A DNA stretch of 64,000 bases from Candidatus Saccharimonadales bacterium (GTDB lineage Bacteria > Patescibacteriota > Saccharimonadia > Saccharimonadales > UBA7683): the NCBI GenBank assembly GCA_046350615.1, contig JAXMAA010000002.1, positions 85,204 through 149,203 on the forward strand, given 5' to 3'. A program made the position numbers and the translations under genes. Shown in pieces: positions 2,757-63,740 of the stretch (the first letter of the stretch is position 1; each line of letters begins with the position of its first letter). Under the pieces are notes generated by a model. That model was given only the letters and a program-made list of their open reading frames with translations. It had not been told where the DNA came from and did not search any database.

Positions 2757-3497
2757 GTGATTTTACGTCCCGTTTCTTCATCTGCTGAAGACCACAATAA
2801 AGGTCAACTTGATGCTCAAAATCTAAAAATTACCAAGATTGCTAAGCAGCAGAAGCGACCGGATCGGTACTCGATCTATATTGATGAAAAGTACAGTTTT
2901 TCATTGAGCGAGTATCAGTTGGCGGGCGCAAAGTTGTTTATTGGGAAGCAGTTTACGCAGGGAGAGTTGACGAGCTTTATTGATGAATCTGCATTTGGTA
3001 AGGCGTACGAACGAGCGCTAAACTACGTAATGATTCGACCACGAAGCAAGCAAGAGATTCAAGATTATCTTAAGCGGACGTTTCTGTATCCAAAACCCAA
3101 AAACTATGTAGATAAAGCGGGCGTTCGGCAGCTTGTGAAGCGTGAGGTCGATAAAGAAAAGGTTGAAAGTATGATTGAGCGGGTGATGGCACGGCTTGAT
3201 GAAAAAGGCTATATAAATGATATGGCGTTTGCTCGGGCTTGGGTTAACTCACGCCAGCTCACAAAAAAATCGAGCAAACGTAAGTTAGAACAAGAATTAC
3301 GAGCCAAATTTATTGACCAAGAAATTATTGCGACAGTATTGCAAAATCAAAACGACACCGAAGTAGGGAATCTTAAAGAGGTAATCATCAAAAAAAGAAG
3401 ATTGTCAAAATATCAAGATGATGTAAAATTAACTCAATACCTACTCCGCCAAGGATTCAACTATGATGATATCAAAGAACAGATTGAATATGTATGA
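2757..3497 (+). CDS. recX: recombination regulator RecX
   Basis: 246 aa with a GTG start. It shows the repeated three-helix pattern: RALNYVMIRPRSKQEIQDYLKR, YINDMAFARAWVNSR and YLLRQGFNYDDI. Confidence 0.7.
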   Translation: MILRPVSSSAEDHNKGQLDAQNLKITKIAKQQKRPDRYSIYIDEKYSFSLSEYQLAGAKLFIGKQFTQGELTSFIDESAFGKAYERALNYVMIRPRSKQEIQDYLKRTFLYPKPKNYVDKAGVRQLVKREVDKEKVESMIERVMARLDEKGYINDMAFARAWVNSRQLTKKSSKRKLEQELRAKFIDQEIIATVLQNQNDTEVGNLKEVIIKKRRLSKYQDDVKLTQYLLRQGFNYDDIKEQIEYV

Positions 3498-4483: not shown

Positions 4484-6265
4484 ATGAAAATATCTGATAA
4501 AACCGTCAGGAAGCTATTGGAAGGTCGCAAAAAGCTTGCAGAAGTTGAGCTTGCAAAACTGGAGCAAGCCGCAGCCAAACAAAAGAAGCCGCTTCAAGAG
4601 GTTGTCTTGAAGAAGGGCGTTGTAAGCGACGAAGAGCTAGCGCAGTGGTATGCTGAAGAATCAGGCATTCCCTTTGTGCAGCTTGACCCAAAAAAGATTG
4701 ATCTCACTCTGCTTAATCTAATTCCAGAACGAATCGCTCGGAGATATAACGCAGTTGTTTTTGGGGAGGAGGGTGACATTAAACAGCTCGCCATGGAGGA
4801 CCCCGATGACCTACAGGCAGTTGATTCATTACAGAAGCAGTTAGGTTCTCAGCCTGCGCTCTATCTTGCGACACACCAAAATATCGTTACCGCACTTGAT
4901 CTCTATCGTGGTGAAATGAGCAGCGAACTGACAAAAGTAATTGCCGAAGATACCGAAGCCGAAAGCGAGGTAATTGATGTGAGCGAGGCGGATTTGGCCG
5001 AAGATTCACCAATTGCACAAACGGTTACATTGCTCATAGAGTTTGCTATTAAATCTGGCGCCTCGGATATTCATATTGAACCGCGTGAAGATTTTGTTCA
5101 GGTTCGGTATCGGGTTGACGGTGTTCTCCGTGAGGCAGATAGATTGCCCAAAAAGGTGCAAGCAGCTTTAGTTAGTCGTGTGAAAATTCTGGCCAACTTG
5201 AAGATAGATGAGCGCCGCATACCACAAGATGGACGTTTTAAGATAGTCAAGGCTGGCAAGATGTACGCACTGCGTGTTTCAACATTACCAATTGCTGATG
5301 GCGAAAAGGTGGTACTTCGTATTCTGGATGAATCGAACAAAGCTCAGAGCATGCAAGAGTTGGGATTCTGGGGTAGTGCGCTAAAAACCATCAATGCAGC
5401 GATTATTGAGCCGCATGGGATGATATTGGTAACTGGCCCAACAGGTTCAGGAAAATCGACCACGCTATTTAGTGTGCTCTCGCTTCTTAATGATCACACG
5501 GTGAATATCTCGACAGTCGAGGATCCCATTGAGTACAAAATTACCGGTGCTAACCAAACTCAGGTGAATCCGGTGGCGGGGATGACGTTTGCCTCCGGCC
5601 TCCGTGCACTACTCCGCCAAGACCCAAATATAATCATGGTGGGTGAAATTCGTGATGGTGAAACGGCTGATATGGGTGTGCAAGCAGCTTTAACGGGTCA
5701 CCTGGTTTTTTCAACTCTGCACACAAACAACGCTGCAACATGTCTGCCTCGTTTGCTGGATATGGGTATTGAACCTTTTTTGATTGCCTCAACAGTTCGT
5801 GCTGTTCTTGGTCAGCGACTGGTCCGCCGAGTATGCCAGGAGTGTCGTATATCTTATAAGCTTGCAGATAATGAGCTTGATGAAATCAAGAAGATGTTTG
5901 GCATTAAAACGGCAGAAGATTTTAAGAAAATAAATGATTTAGAGAAGTTGGCTTTATCGGAATCTATTGGTGCAGAGAGTGCCGATTCTTCAACCGATAC
6001 GAAGCACATTATACGGTTATGGAAGGCAAATGAAGCGGGTTGCGATGCATGTGGGGGTGTTGGGTATAAGGGTCGCTTTGGTATCTACGAGGTGCTTGAA
6101 AATTCAAACAAAATTCAACATTTAATTATGAATAATGAGACGAGCGAGATTATTCAAGACGCAGCCATTAAATCTGGTATGGTAACGATGCAGGTGGATG
6201 GATTTGTGAAAGCCCTGCGCGGCCTTACAACAATTGAAGAAATTTTACGGGTAACAAGGGAGTAG
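4484..6265 (+). CDS. pilB: type IV pilus assembly ATPase PilB (GspE family)
   Basis: 593 aa. It has an N-terminal T2SSE_N-like region, Walker A GPTGSGKST, the Asp box VEDPIEY, Walker B IIMVGEIRD, the His box LTGHLVFSTLHTN and a tetracysteine CxxC...CxxC. Confidence 0.92.
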   Translation: MKISDKTVRKLLEGRKKLAEVELAKLEQAAAKQKKPLQEVVLKKGVVSDEELAQWYAEESGIPFVQLDPKKIDLTLLNLIPERIARRYNAVVFGEEGDIKQLAMEDPDDLQAVDSLQKQLGSQPALYLATHQNIVTALDLYRGEMSSELTKVIAEDTEAESEVIDVSEADLAEDSPIAQTVTLLIEFAIKSGASDIHIEPREDFVQVRYRVDGVLREADRLPKKVQAALVSRVKILANLKIDERRIPQDGRFKIVKAGKMYALRVSTLPIADGEKVVLRILDESNKAQSMQELGFWGSALKTINAAIIEPHGMILVTGPTGSGKSTTLFSVLSLLNDHTVNISTVEDPIEYKITGANQTQVNPVAGMTFASGLRALLRQDPNIIMVGEIRDGETADMGVQAALTGHLVFSTLHTNNAATCLPRLLDMGIEPFLIASTVRAVLGQRLVRRVCQECRISYKLADNELDEIKKMFGIKTAEDFKKINDLEKLALSESIGAESADSSTDTKHIIRLWKANEAGCDACGGVGYKGRFGIYEVLENSNKIQHLIMNNETSEIIQDAAIKSGMVTMQVDGFVKALRGLTTIEEILRVTRE

Positions 6266-14388: not shown

Positions 14389-14768
14389 CCAGAGCATGAG
14401 CGGTTTGCAAACTCTATACAGAATATGATAACCTGAAGTTGACAAAGCAAAATAAAAAAGGAAAATAAGATGAAATCTCTAAAAGGTCATATCTCTAAGC
14501 TGGGGCTGCTCATTGTAATAGCGAGTGCCGGCCTATTTTTGTTTAACGGTAAAGCTGCATTTGCCGCCACAAAAACCTGGACCGGTTCCGGTGGCAACAG
14601 TAACCTCGCCACAGCAGGTAACTGGCAAGGTGGTGTGGCACCCGTTGATGGTGATAGTCTCGCTTTTGGAAGCGGCTCATCGTTGACGCTGAATAATGAC
14701 CTTAGTTCTTCCATTGTAGTAGATGGCTTTGATACAGGGAGAACGGTTTCTATTCCAGGCGCACAGTA

Positions 14769-14789
14769 CCCCGACCGTAAGGTCGTGGG
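14769..14789 (+). repeat. IS left-end subterminal hairpin
   Basis: CCCCGACC-GTAA-GGTCGTGGG forms a stem with a bulged T, 15 nt inside the proposed left junction. Confidence 0.7.
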
Positions 14790-14854
14790 CAGTATGCCCT
14801 AACCCACTAGCTTGTTTGCCGCTTTCGGCCTGCACCGACTATCATGAGTAGGTA

Positions 14855-15292
14855 ATGCCAACGCTCTATCGTCATAAATCCCACTGTGTATTCCTCTGTG
14901 ACTACCATATAGTGTTTCCGACCAAATACCGACGCAGTATCATCAACGAAGGCGTTAAGGCCTTCATTACATCTCGTATCAAAGAAATCCAGGACCACTA
15001 CCCTGAAGTCATCTTCAAAACTGCCAATACCGACAAAGACCACATACACATGCTCGTTTCCATTCCACCAACGTGGTCCGTAGGTAAGGTGGTGGGTATA
15101 ATTAAGGCAAACACTGCAAGAGGCATGAAGGCCGAGCTACCATTTCTAAAAAAGATCTACTGGGGCACAGACAGTATTTGGTCGGAAGGCTACTTTGTTA
15201 GCACAGTTGGCATAAACGAAAGCACTATACGAAGCTACATAGAAAACCAAGGCAAACAGGATAGTGGGCAAACTAACCTTCGGTTAGTTTGA
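14855..15292 (+). CDS. tnpA: IS200/IS605 family Y1 transposase TnpA
   Basis: 145 aa. It has the HUH region DHIHMLVSIPP, a CDYHIVFPTKYRR N-terminus and the catalytic Tyr region SEGYFVSTVG. Confidence 0.9.
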   Translation: MPTLYRHKSHCVFLCDYHIVFPTKYRRSIINEGVKAFITSRIKEIQDHYPEVIFKTANTDKDHIHMLVSIPPTWSVGKVVGIIKANTARGMKAELPFLKKIYWGTDSIWSEGYFVSTVGINESTIRSYIENQGKQDSGQTNLRLV

Positions 15293-15303
15293 AGGAGCCA
15301 ATA

Positions 15304-15324
15304 CCCCGACCGTGAGGTCGTGGG
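15304..15324 (+). repeat. IS right-end subterminal hairpin
   Basis: CCCCGACC-GTGA-GGTCGTGGG forms a hairpin ending 9 nt before the proposed right junction. Confidence 0.7.
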
Positions 15325-16641
15325 AAGTTTATTAATGGCGCAGAACTTAAAGTAAAAGGGAACTTCACCTCTAGCCAAGATGGTAGCTTCACTTTCAATA
15401 ATACTCTTAATGTGACAGATGACGTCATTATATCAGCAAGGTTTGTTAATTTTGGTGGCGACTTAATTGGTAATGGCGATATAACACAAGGCTACACCGG
15501 ACAATACAAAGGCACGTTGTTACTGGGAGACCCTGATGGTAATGGCAATGGCTCTTTTGGTGGTGGGATCTCTGTAGATAATGTAGATCTCTGTGTAGAA
15601 ACAGGTCCTACGATTTTTGGATCATCCGCAAAAGGCACAAGCATAATAAACGGAGGACTGTATCTAGAATCAATCAGTCAGAGCGTGACGATCAGTGAGC
15701 CATTTAACTTGAATAACGCCAGGATCGATGCGTGGGCTGGTAGGTGCAATATGGGCGGAGGTGGCAATGAGCAAAAATTACCATATATCGTTACTTTGTC
15801 TGGGGCAATCTCCGCGAGCAACGGGGTAACCTATGGTGGCACGGTAGACGCTCTTTTGAGTGGGGTCGTTAATGGGGCAATAAGCCTAAGGCAGGGTTCT
15901 CTCGGTAACCTAACAATCGGAAGCTCCACACAGGTTTCGGGAGAGGTGACGGTACCCATTGAGGAATCCGACGACTGCGAAAGTAGTTTCGCAGTCGGCA
16001 AAAATTACAAATATATTGTAAGTGCATCCTGCACAAACACTACGGCATATATTGCGGGCATCCTTATGGGGAGCGGAGCTCTGGGTAACACCAATGTAGA
16101 ATCCGGGGGCAAAATCGCTCCTGGTAATAGTCCTGGCGTACTTTCAACTGGTAATCTTGCATTCGAAGAAGGAGGCATATACGATTTTGAGATCGCTGGC
16201 GATGAGGCTGGTCAATACGATCAGATTAATGTAACTGGAACTGTGAATCTGGGCAATGGAATCCTGAGTATCAGTCAGCTTGATGGCTTCAAACCGAGTG
16301 CTGGAAAGTCGTTTGTGATTATTGCTAATGATGGTGATGACGTTGTTGAGGGTACGTTTAAAGATTTGCCACAGGGTGCAACCATTACTGTTGATGGTGC
16401 AGCCTATACCATTAGCTATACGGGAGGTGACGGGAATGATGTTGAACTCACAGCGATTCCAAGTGGATCAAACACTGGCAATCCTAAGAACTCCACGCCT
16501 GTCGCTTATATCGTTGGTGCAGGGTTGATTAGTGCCGCAATAGTAGTTAAAAAATTAAAGAAGTTACAGCGAAGAAGATAATTGACTAAAGCGTCACTCA
16601 TCTGTATCATAATAAGCATAAGAAAAAAGGAACCACCACCT

Positions 16642-28609: not shown

Positions 28610-29014
28610 CTAAATTTTCAGCAGAGCTGTTTTTAGATCCTCGGTGGTCCGCCATTGCTGATAATTATGCACCAGACGTGGCAAATAGGTAGAGCCTTCT
28701 GCCGAGATGTGCTCCAATAAATAAACTGGCTTTGATTGGCTCAGTGCGACGCCGATCTCCATTATCTGGCCAATGCTACGGTTGGGCGAAGCTATGACTG
28801 CAACAACGGCTTCACTTTGCTGAATGTTTTTAAAAGCTTCTTGAAAAATACCTTTGATATCGTTGGCAGCCTGTAGCTCATCAACAATCGGATCGAAACG
28901 GTTGCAGTAAGCCGTGTGTCCATTACTCTCTAGTGTATCGACTACCAAACGCATGCGCTCGGTAAGCACAGCTATGTCTTCGCCAGTAAACGCATATGCA
29001 CAAAAAAGTTTCAT
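28610..29014 (-). CDS. nucleoside 2-deoxyribosyltransferase-like protein
   Basis: 134 aa. It has an MKLFCAYAF N-terminus and AVVAVIASPNRSIGQIMEIGVALSQSKPVYLL, resembling the family's conserved Glu-containing helix. Confidence 0.45.
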   Translation of the reverse strand: MKLFCAYAFTGEDIAVLTERMRLVVDTLESNGHTAYCNRFDPIVDELQAANDIKGIFQEAFKNIQQSEAVVAVIASPNRSIGQIMEIGVALSQSKPVYLLEHISAEGSTYLPRLVHNYQQWRTTEDLKTALLKI

Positions 29015-29050
29015 AATCTCTATGGTACAGCATTATTGCACAGGCTAGAA

Positions 29051-29542
29051 TTACTTCGTACCTCGAGCCTTTAGTTTGAAAGCAGTGAGGACCTTTCTTT
29101 GCTGCCAGTCTCCGTTTGGGAACATATCAATAAGCGCAAGATTATCAATTAGTATTTCATCTTTAATATTGAGACGCGCTGTTTTCTGAGTGGTACAGTG
29201 AGGTAGAAAACCTTCTCTTGTAAACTCTGGAACATTAAATTGCGCTCCATTCGTTTCAAGCAGGTCAATTAAGGCTGTATGAAGCTTTCGTAGGCTAGTG
29301 GTGTTATCTAACAGGGTTACCTTTGTAGTTCCTAGTACCGTCTCTTTGTTTGCAAAAGTCTTAAGTGCTGGCTGCTTCTCAAGCAATTCTTTTAACTTGG
29401 CTTGTATGTCTAGGCTATTTCTCTCGATAGAGAACACGTCAGCTAATGTAACATGCAGTGGCCAGCCTTCCACTGAAAATTCTGTGTTAACTTCGATAGG
29501 ATCAATGAATGAGACTAAGCAGTATTTCTGAGAGTATTGCAT
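29051..29542 (-). CDS. 2H phosphoesterase superfamily protein (LigT / 2'-5' RNA ligase-like)
   Basis: 163 aa with two HxT/S motifs (HVTL and HCTT) at the expected spacing. Confidence 0.55.
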   Translation of the reverse strand: MQYSQKYCLVSFIDPIEVNTEFSVEGWPLHVTLADVFSIERNSLDIQAKLKELLEKQPALKTFANKETVLGTTKVTLLDNTTSLRKLHTALIDLLETNGAQFNVPEFTREGFLPHCTTQKTARLNIKDEILIDNLALIDMFPNGDWQQRKVLTAFKLKARGTK

Positions 29543-29600
29543 AGAAGTATATTAGCGAACAAAAAGAATTCTGATACAAGGTCTTTAAGCATAAGCAATT

Positions 29601-29677
29601 TGGTACCTCGGGCAGGATTCGAACCTGCGACACGCGGGATAGAAGCCCGCTGCTCTAATCCACTGAGCTACCGAGGC
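29601..29677 (-). tRNA. tRNA-Arg(TCT)
   Basis: The cloverleaf is GCCTCGG TA GCTC AGTGGATTA GAGC A GCGGG CTTCTAT CCCGC GTGTC GCAGG TTCGAAT CCTGC CCGAGGT A CCA. It has a G1-U72 wobble pair. Confidence 0.9.
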
Positions 29678-29889: not shown

Positions 29890-30549
29890 GTGAATATGAA
29901 AAAAGCTGATGCGATAGCGCTGAGAGATGCTGGTTATTCGTACTCAATCATTTCAAAACGATTGAATATTGCTAAGAGCACCTTGAGCAGCTGGTTTAGA
30001 GATCGCCCATTTACGCCAAATGAAGAAACGCTCGCAAGTGCTCGTTCAGGACGCTTGTCTTACGGTTTACTCAAGAAGCAACAGCGAGAAGATGAGACAA
30101 AGCGGCTGATTGAAAAGGGCAGAGAGGAGGTAGGTACTATATTAAAACGTGATCTTTGGATGGCGGGGCTGGGTTTGTGGCTTGGCGAAGGGGCTAAGAC
30201 CAACGAACAGTTGCGTCTTGCCAACTCCGACCCACGGATTATCCAGTTGTGGATGCGTTGGTTACGTGAAGTATGTGATTTAAATGACCAGAACATCACT
30301 GTTCGCATGCACTTGTACAGCGACAGTGACCAAAGTGAGTGCCAAGATTTCTGGAGTTCAGTGACTGGTTTAGGTGAGCGCTCTTTTAGAAAAACGCAAA
30401 TCGATACACGGCTTCAGAAGGTGAAGGGTAAAAAAGGGAATTTGCCATACGGGACGTTGCACGTAAGCGTAGTGGGCAATGGAAACCCTGACTTTGGCGT
30501 TCGATTGTTTCGTAAAATGAACGGATGGTTATCTGCTATACTGGCATAA
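29890..30549 (+). CDS. HTH plus LAGLIDADG-like putative homing endonuclease
   Basis: 219 aa. It has an N-terminal HTH (GYSYSIISKRLNIAKSTLSSWF) and LWMAGLGLWLGEGAK, which resembles a single LAGLIDADG motif. The assignment is tentative. Confidence 0.4.
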   Translation: MNMKKADAIALRDAGYSYSIISKRLNIAKSTLSSWFRDRPFTPNEETLASARSGRLSYGLLKKQQREDETKRLIEKGREEVGTILKRDLWMAGLGLWLGEGAKTNEQLRLANSDPRIIQLWMRWLREVCDLNDQNITVRMHLYSDSDQSECQDFWSSVTGLGERSFRKTQIDTRLQKVKGKKGNLPYGTLHVSVVGNGNPDFGVRLFRKMNGWLSAILA

Positions 30550-32021: not shown

Positions 32022-32103
32022 CCGTCACCCCGGCCGAAGCGAAGGGATCTAGTAAACTCCATAGCAGATTAAGGTAGATCTTTCTACTGCGCTCAAGATG
32101 ACA
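32022..32103 (+). repeat. CGTCAyCC...AAGATGACA intergenic repeat, short copy
   Basis: It aligns with 37431-37538. Shared blocks are CCGAAG, GATCTAGTAAAC, ATCTTTCT and ACTGCGC-CAAGATGACA. Confidence 0.65.
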
Positions 32104-36113: not shown

Positions 36114-37392
36114 ATGGTAGTACAAAATGATGATGAAATTCGTGATTTAATTCAGGCTGAGCATGATCGGCAAACTTCGGGGTTAGAGATGATTCCAAGT
36201 GAAAATCACACATCAGCAAATGTTATGGCAGCACTTGGCTCGTGTTTGACCGACAAATACTCCGAGGGATATCCCGGTCAGCGCTATTACGGCGGGTGCG
36301 AATTTGTTGATAAGGTAGAAAATTTGGCTCGCGATAGGGCTAAGGCACTGTTTGGTGCTACGCATGCCAACGTTCAGGCGCATTCTGTTGTCCGGCTAAC
36401 CTGGTTGCATACTACGCATTGCTGGACACGAGCGATACCGTTATGGGCCTTGTCTGACACACGGCGGCCATATGACACACGGCTTGAAGCTGAACTTTTC
36501 CAGCACATTTTATAACAGTGTGCAGTATCACGCGCGCCCTGATGGTTACATTGATATTGATGAAATGTACAAATTGGCCAAAGAGCATAAGCCAAAGCTA
36601 ATTATTGGCGGCGGCAGCGCATACCCACGTTTTTACGAGTGGGAAAAATACAAAGAGGTGGCTGATAGCGTCGGGGCATACTTCTTGGCTGATATGAGCC
36701 ATGTGGCGGGCCTTGTGGCCGCTGGCGTGTACCCAACTCCAGTTGGCGTTGCTGATGTGGTAACTACAACAACACACAAGACTTTGCGTGGGCCGCGTGG
36801 TGCCCTTATTTTGGCCAACGGGCTGCCTTCTAACCCACTTAAGAAAGTTGAAAGAACTCGCGAGAACATTCCATCTTTGATTGATCGGGCACTAATTCCC
36901 GGCTTGCAAGGCGGGCCGCATAATCATCAGACTGCCGCTATTGCAGTAGCATTGAAAGAGGCCTCTACGCCTGAGTTTAAGGCGTATGGCGCTCAGGTGC
37001 TGACCAACGCTCAAATACTCGCAACAGCGTTGCTAGAAAAAGGCTATCAGCTTGTCACGGGTGGTACCGATAGTCATCTGTTATTGATAGATCTTACGAA
37101 TAAAAATATCAGTGGTAAGCAGGCTGAGGCGGCGCTAGGCAAAGCTGGTATAACCGTAAACAAAAACACAATACCATTTGATCCACGTTCACCGTTTGAC
37201 CCATCTGGAATTCGCCTTGGTACGCCAGCGCTCACTAGTCGTGGAATGAAGGATGCTGAGATGTCCCAGGTCGCTGGTTGGATAGATCAAGCCCTGACGC
37301 AGCACGAAGATGAAGCGCACCTTTCTAAGATACACCAGGCGATTACCGAATTTTGCAAGCAGTTCCCACTGCCGAGCGATGTGGGAAGATAA
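36114..37392 (+). pseudogene. glyA: serine hydroxymethyltransferase carrying two -1 frameshifts
   Basis: Frame 0 reads [11 protein letters not shown]...[18 protein letters not shown]...ANVQAHS. Near 36388 the SHMT sequence continues in another frame ([20 protein letters not shown]). Near 36455 it shifts again ([10 protein letters not shown]...TTTTHKTLRGPRG). Confidence 0.85.
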
Positions 37393-37430
37393 CGGATAGC
37401 AGCAAATAGATAGTCAGTAGACGTAAAAGC

Positions 37431-37538
37431 CGTCATCCCAACCGAAGTGGAGTGATCTAGTAAACCCCGGCAAATAGGCTGTATCTTTCTTCCTTCGCTG
37501 GAGCTACGGTGGACAGGTCGACTGCGCCCAAGATGACA
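37431..37538 (+). repeat. CGTCAyCC...AAGATGACA intergenic repeat, long copy
   Basis: It is homologous to 32022-32103, with an extra internal block (TCCTTCGCTGGAGCTACGGTGGACAGGTCG). Confidence 0.65.
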
Positions 37539-39366: not shown

Positions 39367-39443
39367 GCACGCGTAGCTCAGTGGATTAGAGCATCTGTCT
39401 TCGGAACAGAGGGTCGTAGGTTCGAATCCTACCGCGTGTACCA
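39367..39443 (+). tRNA. tRNA-Arg(TCG)
   Basis: The cloverleaf is GCACGCG TA GCTC AGTGGATTA GAGC A TCTGT CTTCGGA ACAGA GGGTC GTAGG TTCGAAT CCTAC CGCGTGT A CCA. Confidence 0.9.
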
Positions 39444-39485: not shown

Positions 39486-39562
39486 GGGCCAGTAGCTCAG
39501 CTGGTTAGAGCACCTGCCTCTTAAGCAGGGTGTCGAGGGTTCAAGTCCCTCCTGGCCCTCCA
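39486..39562 (+). tRNA. tRNA-Lys(CTT)
   Basis: The cloverleaf is GGGCCAG TA GCTC AGCTGGTTA GAGC A CCTGC CTCTTAA GCAGG GTGTC GAGGG TTCAAGT CCCTC CTGGCCC T CCA. Confidence 0.92.
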
Positions 39563-39647
39563 TTCTGAATAACAGATACAGTTTCAACCAAGTTAATGCT
39601 TCTCAATTTTGAGGGGCATTTTCAATCTGTTAAAAAGTTCTAGTCTC
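39553..39647 (+). repeat. cassette-array repeat R1 (starts inside the tRNA-Lys 3' end)
   Basis: The sequence is TGGCCCTCCATTCTGAATAACAGATAC...AATGCTTCTCAATTTTGAGGGGCATTTTCAATCTGTTAAAAAGTTCTAGTCTC. About nine in ten positions match R2 and R3 by manual alignment. Confidence 0.85.
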
Positions 39648-39655
39648 TGATGCTC

Positions 39656-39684
39656 TAAGCAAACTGTGTCGGCTTTGCTATAGT
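39656..39684 (+). promoter_or_regulatory. predicted promoter of cassette 1 (TAAGCA-17 nt-TGcTATAGT)
   Basis: The extended -10 ends 6 nt before the ATG at 39691. The same architecture recurs at 40697-40725 and 41517-41545. Confidence 0.5.
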
Positions 39685-39690
39685 AGAATC

Positions 39691-40569
39691 ATGAGTGAGC
39701 AAAATAACCAGATAGAATTAAGTAAGCCAACTATTGCAGAGCTACCGGTGACCGTACAGGCCTTATGTGACTGGCAACAAGACGGTGATATCGTACAGCT
39801 ACACCCAGGTGACTTGGGCTGGTACGGTAGGATGGGTACCGAAGACACAATTGAGGCTATTAGAACATGGAAGCGCAATGACCAGACGGTAGCAATCGGA
39901 CTGCTTGATGGTAGGGATTTGTTACGAATTGCAATAGACCCCACTGTGACTGAAGACCCAGCTCTTGCAGATAGAATGGCAGAAGATTCAACAAATCCTG
40001 AAAATGGAGTTCTTCCTGAAGGTGCAGCAACGGTTGAAGCTCGGTCAGGCAGCTTGCTAAAAGACAGGCTTATCGCCCATGGTTGGGAAAAGGGTGAGCC
40101 GTGGACTTCGTTAAAGCGTGACCTATCTGAACCGGTTGAAGATAGCGGGCTAAGAATAGAAGTTGTTACTTCTGACCAAACACAAGACCGTGTGGCCGTT
40201 CAGCAAGCCTCCTTTGATAATTCTACATTCACAGAAGAGAAATGGCACGCAATGGCAGCTGGATTGCCATACAAAGAAGCGAGATGTTTAGTAGGATACG
40301 ACGAGGATAATCCAGTGGCGATTGCAACAGTTTGGTCTGCTGGAGTAGGTAAGCCAGGGCTTATTGAGCCACTAGGAGTTGATAATAATCATCGTCGTAA
40401 AGGCTATGGCAGAGCAATAACTTTAGCTGCTGCAGGTGCGTTGCGGGAAATGGGCTCATCAAGCGCAACTGTTTGTACAGATAGTGTAAATGTTGGGGCA
40501 GTCGCTACTTACAAATCTGCAGGTTTTGAAGAGCTACCAGATATTGAAGATTTAACCCGTAGACGTTAA
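39691..40569 (+). CDS. two-domain GNAT family N-acetyltransferase
   Basis: 292 aa. The C-terminal acetyl-CoA motif is LGVDNNHRRKGYGRAITLAAAGAL. The N-terminal half is a degenerate GNAT-like domain. Confidence 0.7.
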   Translation: MSEQNNQIELSKPTIAELPVTVQALCDWQQDGDIVQLHPGDLGWYGRMGTEDTIEAIRTWKRNDQTVAIGLLDGRDLLRIAIDPTVTEDPALADRMAEDSTNPENGVLPEGAATVEARSGSLLKDRLIAHGWEKGEPWTSLKRDLSEPVEDSGLRIEVVTSDQTQDRVAVQQASFDNSTFTEEKWHAMAAGLPYKEARCLVGYDEDNPVAIATVWSAGVGKPGLIEPLGVDNNHRRKGYGRAITLAAAGALREMGSSSATVCTDSVNVGAVATYKSAGFEELPDIEDLTRRR

Positions 40570-40577
40570 CCTCGGCC

Positions 40578-40688
40578 GCTATAACGTCGACAATGGCCCT
40601 CCAATTTGAATAACAGATACAATTTTAGTCAAGTTAATGCTTCCCAATTTCGAGAAGCATTTTCAATCTGTTAAAAAGTTCTAGTCTC
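40578..40688 (+). repeat. cassette-array repeat R2
   Basis: It consists of GCTATAACGTCGACAATGGCCCTCCA followed by the AATTTGAATAACAGATAC...GTTCTAGTCTC module. Confidence 0.85.
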
Positions 40689-40732
40689 ACTTGCCCTAAG
40701 TAATTCCTGTGCATTTTGCTAAAATGTATTCA

Positions 40733-41395
40733 ATGAATAAAAACGCAGATGACCTAGCTCAAACTATCTGGGATTACATGTTAATGAACCAGTCTATAGA
40801 AAAGGCTGATATCATTATTGGTTTTGGAAGCCACGATAAGCGCACTGCAAAGTGGGTGGCACAACTTTACTTAGATGGCTATGCGCCAACTATATTATTC
40901 TGCGGAAATGAAGGTCATGGAAGAAAAATAAGCGGCTTTGATGGTATCCCTGAAGCGGAAACATATAAAGCTGAGGCTATAAGACTTGGCGTACCTGAGT
41001 CGGATATCAAGACTGAAAGCAAGTCCACTAATACAGGCGAGAACATACAGTTTGCCGCCCAGTTCATAGATGAGACTAAAATTGAAGTAAAAAAGGCCAT
41101 CATTGTTCACAAGCCCTACATGGAGCGTCGTACATACGCAACTATAAAAGCTCAGTGGCCTGCGCCACAGCCAGAATTTATTATGAGTTCTGTGCCTATT
41201 ACATACGAGGAATATATAACCGACCCATTATACCCAAGAGATTACATGATGAATGTCATGGTAGGAGATTTGCAGAGAATCATTGAATACCCCAAGCTGG
41301 GCTTTCAGGTAAGCCAACAAGTTCCCGATAATATCGTTGCTGCAATGAATGAGCTAATCAAACTTGGATACGATAAAAATCTGATTGAATCATAG
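40733..41395 (+). CDS. DUF218 (YdcF/ElyC-like) domain protein
   Basis: The start is chosen at the ATG at 40733, by analogy with the other cassettes. Motifs are DIIIGFGSHD, YAPTILFCG, EAETYKAEAIRLGVPESDI and ESKSTNTGENI. Confidence 0.6.
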   Translation: MNKNADDLAQTIWDYMLMNQSIEKADIIIGFGSHDKRTAKWVAQLYLDGYAPTILFCGNEGHGRKISGFDGIPEAETYKAEAIRLGVPESDIKTESKSTNTGENIQFAAQFIDETKIEVKKAIIVHKPYMERRTYATIKAQWPAPQPEFIMSSVPITYEEYITDPLYPRDYMMNVMVGDLQRIIEYPKLGFQVSQQVPDNIVAAMNELIKLGYDKNLIES

Positions 41396-41397
41396 AC

Positions 41398-41508
41398 GCT
41401 ATAACGTCGACAATGGACCTCCAATCTGAATAACAGATACGATTTCAGTCAAGTTAATGCTCTTCAATTTTGAGGGGCATTTTCAATCTGTAAAATAGTT
41501 CTAGTCTC
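41398..41508 (+). repeat. cassette-array repeat R3
   Basis: It consists of GCTATAACGTCGACAATGGACCTCCA followed by the AATCTGAATAACAGATAC...GTTCTAGTCTC module. Confidence 0.85.
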
Positions 41509-41552
41509 ACATGCTATAAGCAATTCGCCTCTGTTTTGATATTATGTAAATC

Positions 41553-42200
41553 ATGAAACTATATTTATCATAATACGGAATAGGTAATTATCCTGAAAAA
41601 CTCAAAGAGCTTGTAGGTAAGGAGGGTGCAAAGGTTGCGGTTAGCGTGAATGCTCTCGATTTCTCAATTGATTTGCCGAGAGTCGCTCAAAGACTGGAAG
41701 ACGAGATTAAGGGGCTTGCTGCACTTGGCTTTATGGCTGAGCAACTGGACTTGCGGAATTATTTTGATAACGGTAATCTAGCAGAAGTTCTAAAGAATTA
41801 TGACATGGTCTGGATTACGGGTGGAAATACGTTTATTTTAGCCAAGGCATTTAGGCAAAGTGGTTTTGACAAAGTTTTTGAAGACCTCGTTGCGTCTGGG
41901 CAACTTGTATATGGTGGATATAGTGCGGCATTTTGTGTATTAGCAAAATCACTTCACGGCATCGAGCTTGTCGATGATAAGGATGCGGAAGTTGAGAGTT
42001 ATGAGTCGGGCGAGGTTTGGGAGGGGCTGGGTGTCATAGATTTTCACCCTATAGTTCATTTCAGGTCTAATCATCATGAATCCGACGATGTTGAAAAAGA
42101 GTACGAATATGTCGTTAAAAATAAGATTCCTCACAAAACATTTAAGGACGGAGATGTTTATCTAGTAAATGGTGACCAGAAGACTGTGCTATCAGAGTAG
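41553..42200 (+). pseudogene. S51 peptidase (dipeptidase E-like) gene with an in-frame TAA at codon 7
   Basis: The ATG at 41553 reads MKLYLS, then TAA at 41571-41573, then continues in the same frame as YGIGNYPEKLKELVG... into the track ORF 41646-42200. That ORF contains ITGGNTF and GGYSAAF. Confidence 0.55.
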
Positions 42201-42225
42201 CTATAATATAGACAACGGACTTCCA
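42200..42225 (+). repeat. cassette-array terminal repeat R4 (degenerate 26-mer only)
   Basis: GCTATAATATAGACAACGGACTTCCA has 6 mismatches to the R2 26-mer. It is not followed by the conserved module. Confidence 0.6.
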
Positions 42226-42247
42226 TACAAGAACTAAAGACAAATTA

Positions 42248-42275
42248 AAACCCCTCTGCACCTAGAGGGGTTTCT
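42248..42275. terminator. bidirectional terminator hairpin between convergent genes
   Basis: AAAACCCCTCT-GCACCT-AGAGGGGTTTCT. Confidence 0.55.
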
Positions 42276-42291: not shown

Positions 42292-42888
42292 CTAAAAGTT
42301 ATACTCGTAGTCGCTGTTGTAATCATAGTCAAATTTAGTATCTGACTGTAGTGAGTTGCTGGAACTTCCGCTATCACGGACAGCTTTTTTAAATAAACTT
42401 TCTCCAGTAAGAGCTAGGACTATACCCCCAATTATCACAATTGTAGACATAACGACCGTGACTATAAAGATGGTTTTTGCCCATTTTGAATCACGAGCGG
42501 TTCTGGTGAGCGGCTGTCCTTCGGCATCTGTTTTTACAGAAAGATACACAACGAAGAAGTCAACAAGCGACCAAATGTAAGCAATGAGCAATAACACGCT
42601 TCCTAGGAGACCGACAACCGCAGATTTGGTAAAAATACCGAGAATTATTAACAGAAAATATCCTAAGAATAAACCAAGCCTTACAAAGCCAAGCGCTTTT
42701 TGGCCTAGGTAAAAGTTTCGAAGTCCTAGTATCCCACCATATGATGCAAGCAAGAAGGTTGCTAAAAAGTTTCGAGGCTCAGAAACTCCGCCTGGTGTGA
42801 CGTTCGTTGTGGGATAGGCTGTTGGTGCTGGAGCCGGTGTCACTAGCAGCGGCGATTCGGTTGGTTGTGGTCTTTGGATATCATCCAT
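42292..42888 (-). CDS. TM2 domain-containing membrane protein
   Basis: 198 aa. It has a Pro-rich N-terminus and a TM2-like core FLLASYGGILGLRNFYLGQKALGFVRLGLF. Confidence 0.6.
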   Translation of the reverse strand: MDDIQRPQPTESPLLVTPAPAPTAYPTTNVTPGGVSEPRNFLATFLLASYGGILGLRNFYLGQKALGFVRLGLFLGYFLLIILGIFTKSAVVGLLGSVLLLIAYIWSLVDFFVVYLSVKTDAEGQPLTRTARDSKWAKTIFIVTVVMSTIVIIGGIVLALTGESLFKKAVRDSGSSSNSLQSDTKFDYDYNSDYEYNF

Positions 42889-59314: not shown

Positions 59315-60529
59315 ATGAACAAGAGTTATCACTTCCCGAAAAAAACTATCCGGGATATTGCTGTGCATGGCAAGCGAATTTTGGTAAGGGCAGATTTCAA
59401 CGTGCCACTTACGGAAGATGGTAAGATCGCCAGCGATTATCGTATCACTCAAACATTGCCAACACTTCAATATCTACTCGAACGTGGCTGTAGTGTGGTC
59501 GTGATTGCCCATCTTGGTCGACCAGAGGGTCTTGCGAACAAAAAGTACACGCTGGAACCTATTGCAGAGCGTCTTCAGGAGCTTTTACCTACCGTTGAGG
59601 TTCAGTTTGAGGCTTCGCTTATTGATGATAAAGCCCGTCAAGCTTGTAAAGCACTTAAGCCTGGCGAGCTGCTGTTATTGGAAAACTTACGGTTTGACCC
59701 ACGTGAAGAAGCAAATGATTCGGAATTTGCACAGGCAATCAAGATGGTTTCCGGAGCTGCTTATTTTGTCCAAGATGGTTTTGGTGTTGTGCACCGTGCG
59801 CATGCAAGTACCGAGGCAATTACACACCTTCTGCCTTCAGTCGCAGGATTGCTGTTAGAAAAAGAGGTGAGTACACTTGAAAAAGCGATGCAGCATCCCC
59901 AGCATCCAGTTGTTGCTGTGGTGGGCGGAGCCAAAATATCAGATAAAATCGAGTTTATCGAGAGGCTACTTTCCATAGCAGACAAAGTTCTCATCGGTGG
60001 CGCGATGGCAAATACTTTTCTGAAACAGCAGGGCCATCCGATTGGTAGCAGTGTGTATGAAGAGGGTCAAGAAGAAGAAATTGCGACAATATTGCAAAAA
60101 TCTCAATCTGATCAACTGGTGATGCCGGTGGATGTGGCAGTGAGTACAGAAATTGCGAAAAAATCGCAAAAAACTATATGTAACCTAGATGATGTTAAGT
60201 CCGGTGAATATGTTCTTGATCTTGGTCCTAAAACAGTAGAATTATTCCAAAAAGAGGTGGACAAGGCCGCCACTATCATCTGGAATGGCACACTTGGCTA
60301 TGCTGAGTTACCGCAATTTGCAGAAAGCTCAGCAGCTTTAGCTGATGTAATAAGTCGGCAACACGGCGCCACGAGTATTATTGGCGGCGGTGATACGGCC
60401 GATTTTGTATTAGATTGGCAAGCCGCACATCCAAAAGCTGAGTTTACCCACGTCTCAACTGGTGGCGGTGCCAGCTTGGAGCTCATGAGTGGGCTAAAAC
60501 TTCCCGGTCTTGAAGCGCTCATTTCTTGA
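59315..60529 (+). CDS. pgk: phosphoglycerate kinase
   Basis: 404 aa. Motifs are VRADFNVP, IAHLGRP, VVGGAKISDKI and GGGDT. Confidence 0.93.
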   Translation: MNKSYHFPKKTIRDIAVHGKRILVRADFNVPLTEDGKIASDYRITQTLPTLQYLLERGCSVVVIAHLGRPEGLANKKYTLEPIAERLQELLPTVEVQFEASLIDDKARQACKALKPGELLLLENLRFDPREEANDSEFAQAIKMVSGAAYFVQDGFGVVHRAHASTEAITHLLPSVAGLLLEKEVSTLEKAMQHPQHPVVAVVGGAKISDKIEFIERLLSIADKVLIGGAMANTFLKQQGHPIGSSVYEEGQEEEIATILQKSQSDQLVMPVDVAVSTEIAKKSQKTICNLDDVKSGEYVLDLGPKTVELFQKEVDKAATIIWNGTLGYAELPQFAESSAALADVISRQHGATSIIGGGDTADFVLDWQAAHPKAEFTHVSTGGGASLELMSGLKLPGLEALIS

Positions 60530-62921: not shown

Positions 62922-63740
62922 ATGGTGGATCTTATGAGTGGGCGACGCAAAATAATCATTGGTAACTGGAAGATGCACTTTACTGTCAAGCAGGCGGTGA
63001 GCTTTGCTGGCAAGCTTGCGGCTAAGCAGATCCCAGAAGGTGTAATAGTGGGCATTGCTCCTCATAACTTAGCTCTTTCAGAAATTGCGACAATATTGCA
63101 AAAAACAGGTATTAAAATAGCCGCTCAAAATGCTTATTTTCAAGATGAAGGCGCTTTCACTGGAGAGGTTAGCATGCCAATGCTTCGAGGTTTAGCACAT
63201 TATGTACTCATTGGCCATTCTGAGCGGCGACATGTGTTCCACGAATCAAACGATTTAATAAGAAATAAAGTAGCGGCTGCGGTTCGAAGTGGCATAACGC
63301 CAGTGCTCTGTGTTGGCGAAACGCTGGTAGAACGAGAACACTATCATACAAGGCAGGTTATCTCTGACCAAGTTTGTTCTGGTGTAGCAAACCTGACAGC
63401 AGAAGAAGTCAAAAAAGTGGTCATTGCTTACGAGCCAGTTTGGGCGCTCAGTAATGGTACTGACTTTGCCAATCACAAAACACCACTACCTGAAGATGTA
63501 CAAAAAGCCTGCCAGATAATCCGTGCAAATATTGGTGAGCTGTATGGCAAAGAGGTGGCCGAAAAGGTTAAAGTGTTGTATGGGGGCAGTGCAAATAAAG
63601 ACAACGCACTTAGCTATCTCAGAACTGAAGGGGTGGATGGTCTTCTGCCTGGCGGGGCAAGCCTGAGCGTGGCAACATTTTGGCCGATTGTAGAGGCGGC
63701 TAGCCAGGCTGTTCCGATGAAGATTGAGGTTAAGGCGTGA
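62922..63740 (+). CDS. tpiA: triosephosphate isomerase
   Basis: 272 aa (the start may be the ATG at 62934). Motifs are GNWKMH, IGHSERR, AYEPVWA and YGGS. Confidence 0.9.
   Translation: MVDLMSGRRKIIIGNWKMHFTVKQAVSFAGKLAAKQIPEGVIVGIAPHNLALSEIATILQKTGIKIAAQNAYFQDEGAFTGEVSMPMLRGLAHYVLIGHSERRHVFHESNDLIRNKVAAAVRSGITPVLCVGETLVEREHYHTRQVISDQVCSGVANLTAEEVKKVVIAYEPVWALSNGTDFANHKTPLPEDVQKACQIIRANIGELYGKEVAEKVKVLYGGSANKDNALSYLRTEGVDGLLPGGASLSVATFWPIVEAASQAVPMKIEVKA

Follow-up and report, generated by a model that had tools for sequence, protein, structure and literature searches.

What kind of genetic arrangement places three unrelated genes directly 3′ of a tRNA-Lys gene, each of them closed by a sequence that copies the end of that tRNA? 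The question is raised by a locus in a 64-kb stretch of DNA (the window, to which coordinates refer) from a metagenome-assembled genome (MAG) of a Saccharimonadales bacterium, and is approached here together with a set of related loci, numbered with the prefix L. The locus is probably an integron-like chromosomal cassette array, whose units are exchanged by an unlinked site-specific recombinase at a core derived from tRNA-Lys; arrays of this type are widespread in Saccharibacteria and work like an integron. Site-specific cassette exchange is indicated by identical cassettes in different arrays and by breaks in similarity at the core TGGCCCTCCA. The finding is real and general across a phylum, and it appears to be undescribed, since the literature searched, the site sequence included, holds no description of the system and contains neither GTTGCGATAGCG nor GCGATAGCGTCTAC. 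The array consists of the following elements:

39486-39562, plus strand: tRNA-Lys(CTT), the array anchor (attI-like), with the 3′ end CTGGCCCTCCA (ARAGORN and Rfam)
39553-39562, plus strand: shared crossover core TGGCCCTCCA, the last 10 nt of tRNA-Lys (sequence)
39563-39690, plus strand: leader of cassette 1, a class C composite module (sequence, alignment and fold)
39691-40569, plus strand: cargo of cassette 1, a GNAT N-acetyltransferase of 292 aa (Pfam)
40570-40603, plus strand: closing site of cassette 1, with GCTATAACGTCGACAA at 40578-40593 and the core TGGCCCTCCA at 40594-40603 (matrix score 37.9 bits)
40604-40732, plus strand: leader of cassette 2, a composite module as in cassette 1 (sequence and alignment)
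40733-41395, plus strand: cargo of cassette 2, a DUF218/YdcF-like protein of 220 aa (Pfam; without an NCBIfam match)
41398-41423, plus strand: closing site of cassette 2, with the core TGGACCTCCA carrying one mismatch (matrix score 31.3 bits)
41424-41552, plus strand: leader of cassette 3, a composite module as in cassettes 1 and 2 (sequence and alignment)
41553-42200, plus strand: cargo of cassette 3, an S51 peptidase-like gene, listed as a pseudogene (Pfam and homologue alignment)
42200-42225, plus strand: decayed terminal site GCTATAATATAGACAACGGACTTCCA (sequence; 1.9 bits on the family-wide matrix)

The three genes are co-oriented, one per unit, and each unit ends in GCTATAACGTCGACAATGG[C/A]CCTCCA. 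The order of tRNA-Lys(CTT), GNAT, DUF218 and S51 genes had been proposed in an earlier sequence-only reading of this DNA, and both the coordinates and the Pfam families are confirmed; the S51 gene keeps its family, but it is not intact. It contains an in-frame TAA at codon 7 (41571-41573), where MKLYLS*YGIG in the window aligns with MKLFLSSLGIS of an intact homologue and the TAA stands for serine codon 7, and it is therefore either a pseudogene or affected by a sequencing error; intact cassette-borne homologues are present in L025, L039 and L050. The distal cassette of the window, this S51 pseudogene, adjoins the most decayed site of the array. The 26-mer GCTATAACGTCGACAATGGCCCTCCA is exact at 40578-40603, where the proposed identity of the last 10 nt of the site with the tRNA-Lys 3′ end holds, and is repeated at 41398-41423 with one mismatch, which falls in the core; zero copies are expected in shuffled sequence and there are zero further copies in the 64 kb. 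The site had been placed 0-10 nt after each stop codon, and the gaps are 8, 2 and -1 nt. The fourth, degenerate copy agrees with the local consensus at 20 of 26 positions and is weak when judged by the family-wide matrix. In an Rfam search of the locus only the two tRNAs are recognized, and the recombination site has no match to a known RNA.

The closest homologues of the window GNAT (84% and 73% identity) are located in arrays with different neighbours. In L014 (84%) the gene lies directly 3′ of the tRNA-Lys end and is followed by GTTGCGATAGCGACGACCGTGGCCCTCCA, and in L015 (73%) it belongs to a run of at least four units (a NUDIX gene, the GNAT and two small open reading frames, ORFs) separated by (TAG)TTGCGATAGCnnCnACnnTGGCCCTCCA; homologues of about 70% identity (L001-L013) are found in varied, unrelated contexts without sites. 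The gene is thus not syntenic, contrary to what an invariant chromosomal cluster would show, and the conserved element is the site and not the leader of the window. A pattern generalised from L014 and L015, GCKATARNNNNNACNNTGGCCCTCCA, is present in 99 stretches of GTDB species representatives, with about 17 chance matches expected over the whole collection, and nearly all of these stretches belong to Saccharibacteria, Saccharimonadales or Patescibacteria MAGs; the same pattern is found on at least 120 contigs of JGI metagenomes and on none of the IMG/VR viral contigs, which leaves a phage vehicle unsupported. The window-specific 26-mer has 0 matches in the JGI metagenomes, this local variant of the site being rare. 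A position matrix built from the exact pattern matches detects 579 sites in 222 related loci (about 1.4 Mb in total) and zero in shuffled sequence. All of them are direct repeats within a locus (0 of 579 on the opposite strand), the tRNA-Lys genes are without exception on the site strand (93 of 93, of which 77 CTT and 16 TTT), and in 88 of the 90 loci with a tRNA-Lys this gene stands 5′ of the first site; the largest array comprises 13 sites in 12.9 kb (L183). The site and the module do not stand upstream of many unrelated genes: in the window they are confined to this locus, and in the 222 loci to co-oriented arrays 3′ of tRNA-Lys.

Over the family the site spans about 36 bp and reads A-n4-AGTTGCGATAG-n5-AC-nn-TGGCCCTCCA-A, with the first A at -8 (consensus of 292 distinct sites), the window carrying a local variant. 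Its last 10-11 nt equal the tRNA-Lys 3′ end and are the best-conserved part of the 292 distinct sites, so the match to the tRNA is kept in homologous arrays; the 26-nt arm upstream of the core is precisely conserved, is derived neither from the tRNA nor from its trailer, and is maintained across hundreds of cassettes with differing leaders. Conservation is position-specific in sequence and is interrupted by a variable middle. Single-strand folding of either strand of the site gives no hairpin (z-scores from -0.23 to +0.65), and mutual information across the site does not reveal long-range covariation. An attC-like structure was rejected on account of the missing single-strand hairpin, a role as uptake signal sequence on account of the restriction of the site to one locus and one strand, and a tRNA-primer-binding site because the cassette mRNA bears the sense copy and not the complement.

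A few loci depart from this general picture. Single matches outside Saccharibacteria, without tRNA-Lys and without an array, occur in L087 (Ktedonospora formicarum), L089 (Dehalococcoidia) and L107, a number consistent with the approximately 17 expected by chance, and the typical tRNA-Lys arrays of L021, L042 and L043, labelled Magnetospirillaceae, Polynucleobacter and Nevskiaceae, are probably on misbinned Saccharibacteria contigs. In L016, L066, L229 and L233 a second complete tRNA-Lys (TTT or CTT) stands in mid-array with its own cassette run behind it, which suggests either a tandem pair of anchors or a joint duplication of the tRNA and the first cassette; in L080 a decayed 3′ half of tRNA-Lys lies inside the array (4750-4812 of that locus). 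One site of L027 (about 2537-2600) contains a 29-nt insertion between ...ACGATG and GCCCTCCA (CCTGCCCACCGAAGCTATTGCAAAGGAGG), which may be the footprint of aberrant recombination.

How, then, do the units move? Cassette-sized blocks are found at 97.6-100% nucleotide identity, mostly at least 99%, in different arrays and with unrelated neighbours on both sides. A low-molecular-weight phosphatase-like cassette with a 467-bp body is positioned directly after tRNA-Lys in L042 and after three different sites in L017, L222 and L233; a cassette with a 659-bp body is common to L018, L140 and L230; another is the fifth unit of L147 and the first of L192; and two cassettes are common to L222 and L230 in a different order. 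Between L147 and L208, 2.7 kb of the downstream flank is 98.4% identical, and upstream of the last core TGGCCCTCCA no similarity is left. Comparison of strains thus gives what had been predicted for a cassette platform, the same cassette in different positions and arrays with similarity breaking at the core. The variable middle of the site stays with the 5′ cassette in all 12 informative pairs, and the upstream anchor differs; the crossover is consequently confined to the 10-11-nt core, and in none of the 12 pairs does it fall in the equally long conserved left block AGTTGCGATA. To judge from such junctions, the tRNA end can probably take the place of a site as exchange partner, and the junctions behave as in site-specific recombination, by analogy with attI x attC and attC x attC; it is these junctions, rather than enzymology, that suggest serial site-specific integration.

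Similar reshuffling might also arise by natural competence and RecA-dependent homologous recombination of imported DNA, with the 36-bp sites and tRNA-Lys serving as portable homology arms, much as in the minimal mobile elements of Neisseria, an explanation that we regard as unlikely. It would agree with the lack of a recombinase linked to any of the 222 arrays, with sites conserved in sequence rather than in structure and with the presence of RecA and type IV pilus/competence-type genes in the window; moreover, in L220/L222 the break lies inside the leader, at the second arm of an inverted repeat, and not at the core. Nevertheless, the same cassette follows the tRNA in one array and ordinary sites in others (L042 against L017/L222/L233; L192 against L147), and the 10-11 nt shared by the tRNA and the sites are below the length that RecA needs. 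Homology-driven exchange would also spread along the site, with crossovers at about equal frequency in AGTTGCGATA, unlike the observed junctions, 12 of 12 of which lie 3′ of the variable middle; the single orientation and the fixed offset of the stop codons likewise point to a directional, site-specific process. The break in L220/L222 indicates that other events, homologous or illegitimate recombination, also shape the arrays.

Site quality falls with rank from the tRNA, a trend that matches the decayed distal unit of the window. The arrays might, on another view, be relics, no longer mobile, of larger integrase-carrying islands (tycheposon- or satellite-like) integrated serially at tRNA-Lys that lost their integrases and most of their content and left one gene and an att scar each; tRNA 3′-end repeats do separate the cargo, longer decayed tRNA-Lys fragments exist (L080, and the 24-nt remnants in class C leaders), and tandem accretion at tRNAs is documented for tycheposons (bioRxiv 10.1101/2020.12.28.424599). 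We consider this origin improbable, as an integrase or a fragment of one occurs in 0 of the 222 loci, all units are compact and of similarly small size and carry a precisely conserved 26-nt arm foreign to the tRNA, and cassettes at least 99% identical in different arrays and ranks show that the small units have themselves moved recently. The tycheposons of Prochlorococcus are kb-scale elements with a tyrosine recombinase of their own, and the partial tRNAs left behind by them measure about 40 nt (bioRxiv 10.1101/2020.12.28.424599). The arrays share with them the tRNA anchor, the copies of the tRNA 3′ part between units, the displacement of older units inward by newer ones and the decay of remnants; they differ from them in their one-gene units of about 0.7 kb without integrase and in the repetition of 10-11 nt of the tRNA together with a 26-nt non-tRNA arm.

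Pfam census, targeted scans and phmmer detected neither a tyrosine nor a serine recombinase in the window, and there is no Phage_integrase match; a motif regular expression for recombinases applied to 703 ORFs gave no match either. When all six-frame ORFs of the 222 loci and the window were searched by phmmer with XerD and gamma-delta resolvase, no match was obtained at E<=10. Pfam analysis of 40 ORFs that are large or recurrent, within the arrays or next to them, together with a census of 122 cassette proteins, did not identify an array-linked recombinase; the large and recurrent ORFs are ordinary cargo or housekeeping genes, and the conserved neighbours of the arrays are housekeeping genes as well (FolD, DHFR, FolC-like, GlyA, MurB and M50 peptidase, from the metabolism of folate and of the cell wall, and a response regulator). 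Neither an integrase nor an integrase fragment is present in 449 cassettes or their flanks, and a linked HUH recombinase was found neither in the window nor in the 222 loci. The earlier statement that the window lacks a recombinase therefore holds for tyrosine and serine enzymes but not for an IS200-type Y1 transposase (TnpA) encoded at 14855-15292.

This IS200/IS605-type element is bounded by 30-nt hairpin repeats at 14764-14793 and 15299-15328, and its transposase gene is followed, where TnpB would be expected, by a 389-aa ORF (15412-16581) without a Pfam match. As driver of the arrays the element was rejected, since its ends are its own and none of the other loci contains it. More generally, single-stranded transposition by an HUH/Y1 enzyme of the IS200/IS605 type, inserting 3′ of TGGCCCTCCA with each unit bringing a new right-end target, would account for the strict single orientation, for a fixed short sequence that stands 5′ of each insertion and recurs as the final stretch of the unit, and for the hairpin a few nucleotides inside the left end, and a TnpA gene is indeed at hand in the window. 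Such transposition is, however, very improbable: the window TnpA has unrelated hairpin ends of its own and, used as a phmmer query, finds no homologue in any other array locus even at E<=10; IS200/IS605 ends require conserved hairpins, whereas the left-end hairpins of the cassettes vary in sequence and the conserved right-end site does not fold. The cassettes differ from the non-autonomous elements of the IS200/IS605 group (PATEs) in the same respect, being without conserved subterminal hairpins at both ends.

Several observations weigh against exchange at the core by an unlinked site-specific recombinase. No linked recombinase is present in the window, the IS200 TnpA with its unrelated ends aside, or in the approximately 1.4 Mb of loci, which leaves the enzymatic step without a candidate; either the enzyme is supplied in trans by another part of the genome, or host functions carry the exchange. 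The site shows no dyad symmetry, typical core sites of tyrosine recombinases being symmetric, and its identity with the tRNA is short, at 10-11 nt only. In addition, the break of L220/L222 lies in a leader, the trend of site quality with rank is affected by the choice of loci (ascertainment bias), and the promoter and terminator roles assigned to the leaders are predictions from sequence. The integron-like array remains the favoured interpretation, and its operation would be as follows. A recombinase encoded elsewhere, dedicated and probably of the tyrosine type, would exchange strands within the short core, the partners being a cassette site and the tRNA-Lys end or two cassette sites, so that cassettes are inserted, excised and reshuffled as units of leader, gene and site, presumably through circular intermediates. 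New units would enter mostly beside the tRNA, at which insertion would be preferential, and older ones would be pushed distally and decay. Whatever lies upstream, the tRNA or a preceding gene, would be closed off by an intrinsic terminator in the 5′ end of each cassette, and transcription from an extended -10 promoter would begin at the ATG and give a leaderless mRNA.

The cassettes themselves are small and varied. A first set of 240 has a median length of 704 bp, and in 85% of these cassettes the main ORF runs on the strand of the site; stop codons often fall within the site, in one fixed frame (TAA-TTT-TAG-TTG-CGA-TAG). Clustering of 328 cassette ORFs yields 245 clusters, 208 of them singletons. 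The commonest cargo are YoeB/YefM-type and other two-gene toxin-antitoxin pairs (PIN among them), followed by NUDIX hydrolases; HAD hydrolases, methyltransferases, GNATs, S51 peptidases, APH kinases, an AadA-like nucleotidyltransferase, MFS and ABC transporters, Ddl, VanZ, YcaO, radical SAM, a ResIII helicase and a CHAP amidase are also carried. The closest named relatives of the window GNAT outside Saccharibacteria are those of Actinomycetota (Streptomyces, Micromonospora, Saccharothrix, Kribbellaceae), at 57-61% identity over 95-99% of the length; this similarity suggests exchange of the gene with the phylum that hosts Saccharibacteria.

The leaders raise the question of how such cargo may be expressed. 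In the window, the modules at 39553-39647, 40594-40688 and 41414-41508 are identical pairwise at 83-85 of 95 positions (87-89%), which bears out the earlier estimate of nine in ten, and the similarity continues, more weakly, to each ATG (repeat family D1). After the core follow, in this order, about 10 nt, ACAGAT, a hairpin with a T-run, ATCTGT, a 24-nt remnant of tRNA-Lys and an extended -10 box. In cassette 1, ACAGAT (39572) and ATCTGT (39625) flank a terminator-like hairpin with its T-run (39595-39620), a decayed 24-mer of the tRNA-Lys 3′ end, GTTCTAGTCTCTGATGCTCTAAGC, occupies 39637-39660, and the extended -10 box TGCTATAGT (39676-39684) ends 6 nt before the ATG. In such a unit the tRNA remnant, GTTCTAGTCTC..TGC.CTAAG, compares with the last 24 nt of tRNA-Lys, GTTCAAGTCCCTCCTGGCCCTCCA. 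Cassette 2 has its inverted repeat around the hairpin at 40613-40671, then the remnant of the tRNA end and the box TGCTAAAAT (40717-40725), and cassette 3 has the inverted repeat at 41433-41491 and the box TGATATTAT (41537-41545), both boxes being 7 nt before the ATG. Differences between the copies of the hairpin preserve pairing through G-U/G-C/A-U changes. The spacing of 6-7 nt between -10 box and ATG implies leaderless transcripts. Throughout the family, TGnTAtnnT is found at -15 to -7 before the ATG in most of 163 cassettes, and a Shine-Dalgarno-like sequence at only 14 of the 163 start codons; core and ATG are a median of 59 nt apart. Of 338 anchors, 176 have a hairpin with a T-run behind them (38 in shuffled sequences), most often 13-15 nt past the core. 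Each unit is accordingly predicted, from these motifs, to be an insulated, self-expressed, leaderless gene.

Part of this material would also suit a simpler account, in which the repeats are a duplicated terminator-plus-promoter or 3′ untranslated region module without a role in recombination and the tRNA match is a copied trailer. The leaders do contain terminator-like and promoter-like elements, and the leaders of one class (CGCTTATGCTTAAA plus hairpin) correspond to a generic tRNA trailer, also found 3′ of tRNA-Arg(TCT), a related form following tRNA-Glu in the window. This account, which had been retained as the duller alternative in the sequence-only reading, is scarcely credible: the 26 conserved nucleotides upstream of the core lie outside both tRNA and trailer and are kept across hundreds of cassettes with differing leaders, and the junction data contradict it, cassette-sized blocks having been exchanged between genomes with breakpoints at the core.

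The shared leader that had been taken as a feature of the platform does unite the three units of the window, but it is one of several leader classes and is not general to the system; the window module TTTCAATCTGTNNNNNAGTTCTAGTC has 0 matches in GTDB genomes and is thus lineage-specific. Leaders of the window type (class C) are characterized by an invariant ACAGAT, a variable hairpin region of about 50 nt, ATCTGT and then a decayed 24-nt copy of tRNA-Lys. They extend over 39572-39660, 40613-40701 and 41433-41521 in the window and are also present in L015, L018, L029, L038, L085, L090, L095, L096, L105, L136, L143, L184, L210, L222, L229 and L230. The tRNA-Lys remnant lies 64-80 nt past the core, mostly 74-80, and the inverted repeat stands directly after anchors in 24 of 27 cases. 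The break of L220/L222 falls at the second arm of this repeat. RNAalifold analysis of class C leaders lends an RNA helix no support from covariation, since neither arm of the inverted repeat varies; because of this invariance, the element looks more like a protein-binding or relic recombination element than like an RNA helix.

Set beside known systems, the arrays are functionally closest to sedentary chromosomal integrons and to CALINs, the attC clusters without integrase. Like integrons, they consist of co-oriented, mostly single-gene cassettes with a site at the 3′ end and a fixed crossover, and they have one privileged entry site at the head of the array; the cargo is extremely diverse and mostly unique, with recurrent toxin-antitoxin cassettes, and a minority of inverted cassettes, identical cassettes across arrays and distal decay are further points in common. 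Unlike integrons, they have no adjacent IntI (a tyrosine recombinase distinguished by an IntI-specific insertion), and none in the 222 loci; their sites are about 36 bp long, conserved in sequence, asymmetric and non-folding, in place of the imperfect attC palindromes of 57-141 nt, whose single strands fold (R''-L''/L'-R') and whose conservation is one of structure; entry is at the 3′ end of a tRNA gene and not at attI; and the cassettes have their own predicted terminator and promoter and are leaderless, whereas integron cassettes are promoterless and depend on Pc. Three defining features of integrons thus fail, namely the adjacent IntI, attC-like sites and promoterless cassettes, the last as judged by sequence prediction. 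The host also differs, belonging to a phylum of the candidate phyla radiation (CPR), for which the literature searched holds no integron report. Apart from integrons, no cassette-capture system is known to us in which site and platform are defined. The integron-like platform put forward in the sequence-only reading is supported by the confinement of site and module to loci of this kind, by the changing neighbours of the genes and by the retained match to the tRNA end.

Other systems combine small cargo with a recombinase encoded elsewhere. IMEX elements and the pdif modules of Acinetobacter plasmids carry small cargo between sites of about 28 bp and rely on a recombinase from another locus, and pdif modules lie between XerC/D and XerD/C sites of opposite orientation. 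A site of this group measures 28 bp, resembles the dif of the host and has its XerC and XerD arms on either side of a 6-bp spacer. The arrays resemble such Xer-dependent modules in the small cargo between short conserved sites and in the absence of a recombinase of their own, the enzyme presumably being encoded elsewhere, but all sites within a locus are direct, unlike those of pdif modules, the anchor is a tRNA and not dif, and half-sites corresponding to the XerD and XerC arms are not recognizable; compared by eye, the site is only weakly similar to Escherichia coli dif, with agreement at 12 of 28 positions, and this dif may not be that of the present lineage. The minimal mobile elements of Neisseria are cassettes exchanged by transformation and homologous recombination, with hundreds of bp of the flanking genes as homology. 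The absence of an element-borne recombinase, a competent host and alternative cassettes at one chromosomal site are common to both, and the difference lies in the 36-bp boundary sites, with crossover within a 10-nt core shared with the tRNA.

A broader proposal, towards which we lean only slightly, is that the arrays represent a gene-capture platform of the integron type that evolved a second time, independently, and is specific to the CPR lineage Saccharibacteria, with the tRNA-Lys 3′ end as entry, a 36-bp asymmetric site and an unlinked recombinase (a co-opted housekeeping enzyme or an unrecognised family), and that through it these epibionts, with their reduced genomes, receive accessory genes ready for expression, of which some are held in common with their actinobacterial hosts. 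If true, a phylum-wide analogue built from different parts (a tRNA as anchor, a short sequence-specific site, leaderless units expressed on their own and no linked integrase) would mean that cassette arrays evolved more than once, and it would offer a concrete mechanism for the turnover of accessory genes in Saccharibacteria, in which gene gain is difficult to account for given a small genome and a life as epibionts on Actinobacteria. A novel or co-opted recombinase would, in that case, merit a name for a new system, and the hunt for it is now a well-posed problem. In practical terms, the 36-bp site is a simple marker for mining cassettes in metagenomes and for following strain-level variation, the cargo includes resistance-like genes (APH, the AadA-like nucleotidyltransferase, MFS, VanZ and Ddl), and the pair of site and tRNA is a candidate landing pad for genetic tools in the newly tractable Saccharibacteria.

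The array of the window is framed by the following features:

39367-39443, plus strand: tRNA-Arg(TCG), context of the array and often 5′ of tRNA-Lys in related loci (ARAGORN and Rfam)
42247-42274, no strand assigned: bidirectional terminator-like hairpin between the array end and the convergent membrane-protein gene
42292-42888, minus strand: membrane-protein gene, convergent with the array and its distal neighbour

Other observations concern the remainder of the window. On the minus strand, at 28610-29677, tRNA-Arg(TCT) is followed by the generic tRNA trailer (AATTGCTTATGCTTAAA...) and by a leaderless-looking 2H-phosphoesterase-like gene (29542-29051) that resembles, by eye, the cargo of the cassette common to L018, L140 and L230; the gene ends near GCTGTACCA, which resembles the tRNA-Arg end GAGGTACCA, and a second small gene (29014-28610) begins 9 nt further on. 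This locus may be a small array anchored at tRNA-Arg. Between tRNA-Arg(TCT) and tRNA-Gly, a 219-aa ORF (29890-30549) with N-terminal HTH_23/HTH_7 and the LAGLIDADG-like motif AGLGLWLGEGAK may, from its motifs, be a homing-endonuclease-like gene within a tRNA cluster. The glyA (SHMT) gene is split into overlapping ORFs at 36114-36515 and 36472-37392; the latter covers positions 125-399 of the SHMT profile and the former also matches the profile, presumably with the N-terminal part, so that the frameshift reflects either a pseudogene or an assembly error. A palindromic 25-nt repeat, AGAAATTGCGACAATATTGCAAAAA, is present four times (3323-3347, 60076-60100, 60148-60172 and 63080-63104), three of the copies inside or adjoining the PGK and TIM genes, and resembles an operator at which a regulator of glycolytic genes would bind. 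Finally, a 39-nt repeat, CCGTCACCCCGGCCGAAGCGAAGGGATCTAGTAAACTCC, is found at 32022-32060 and 37430-37468, its copies being 82% identical.

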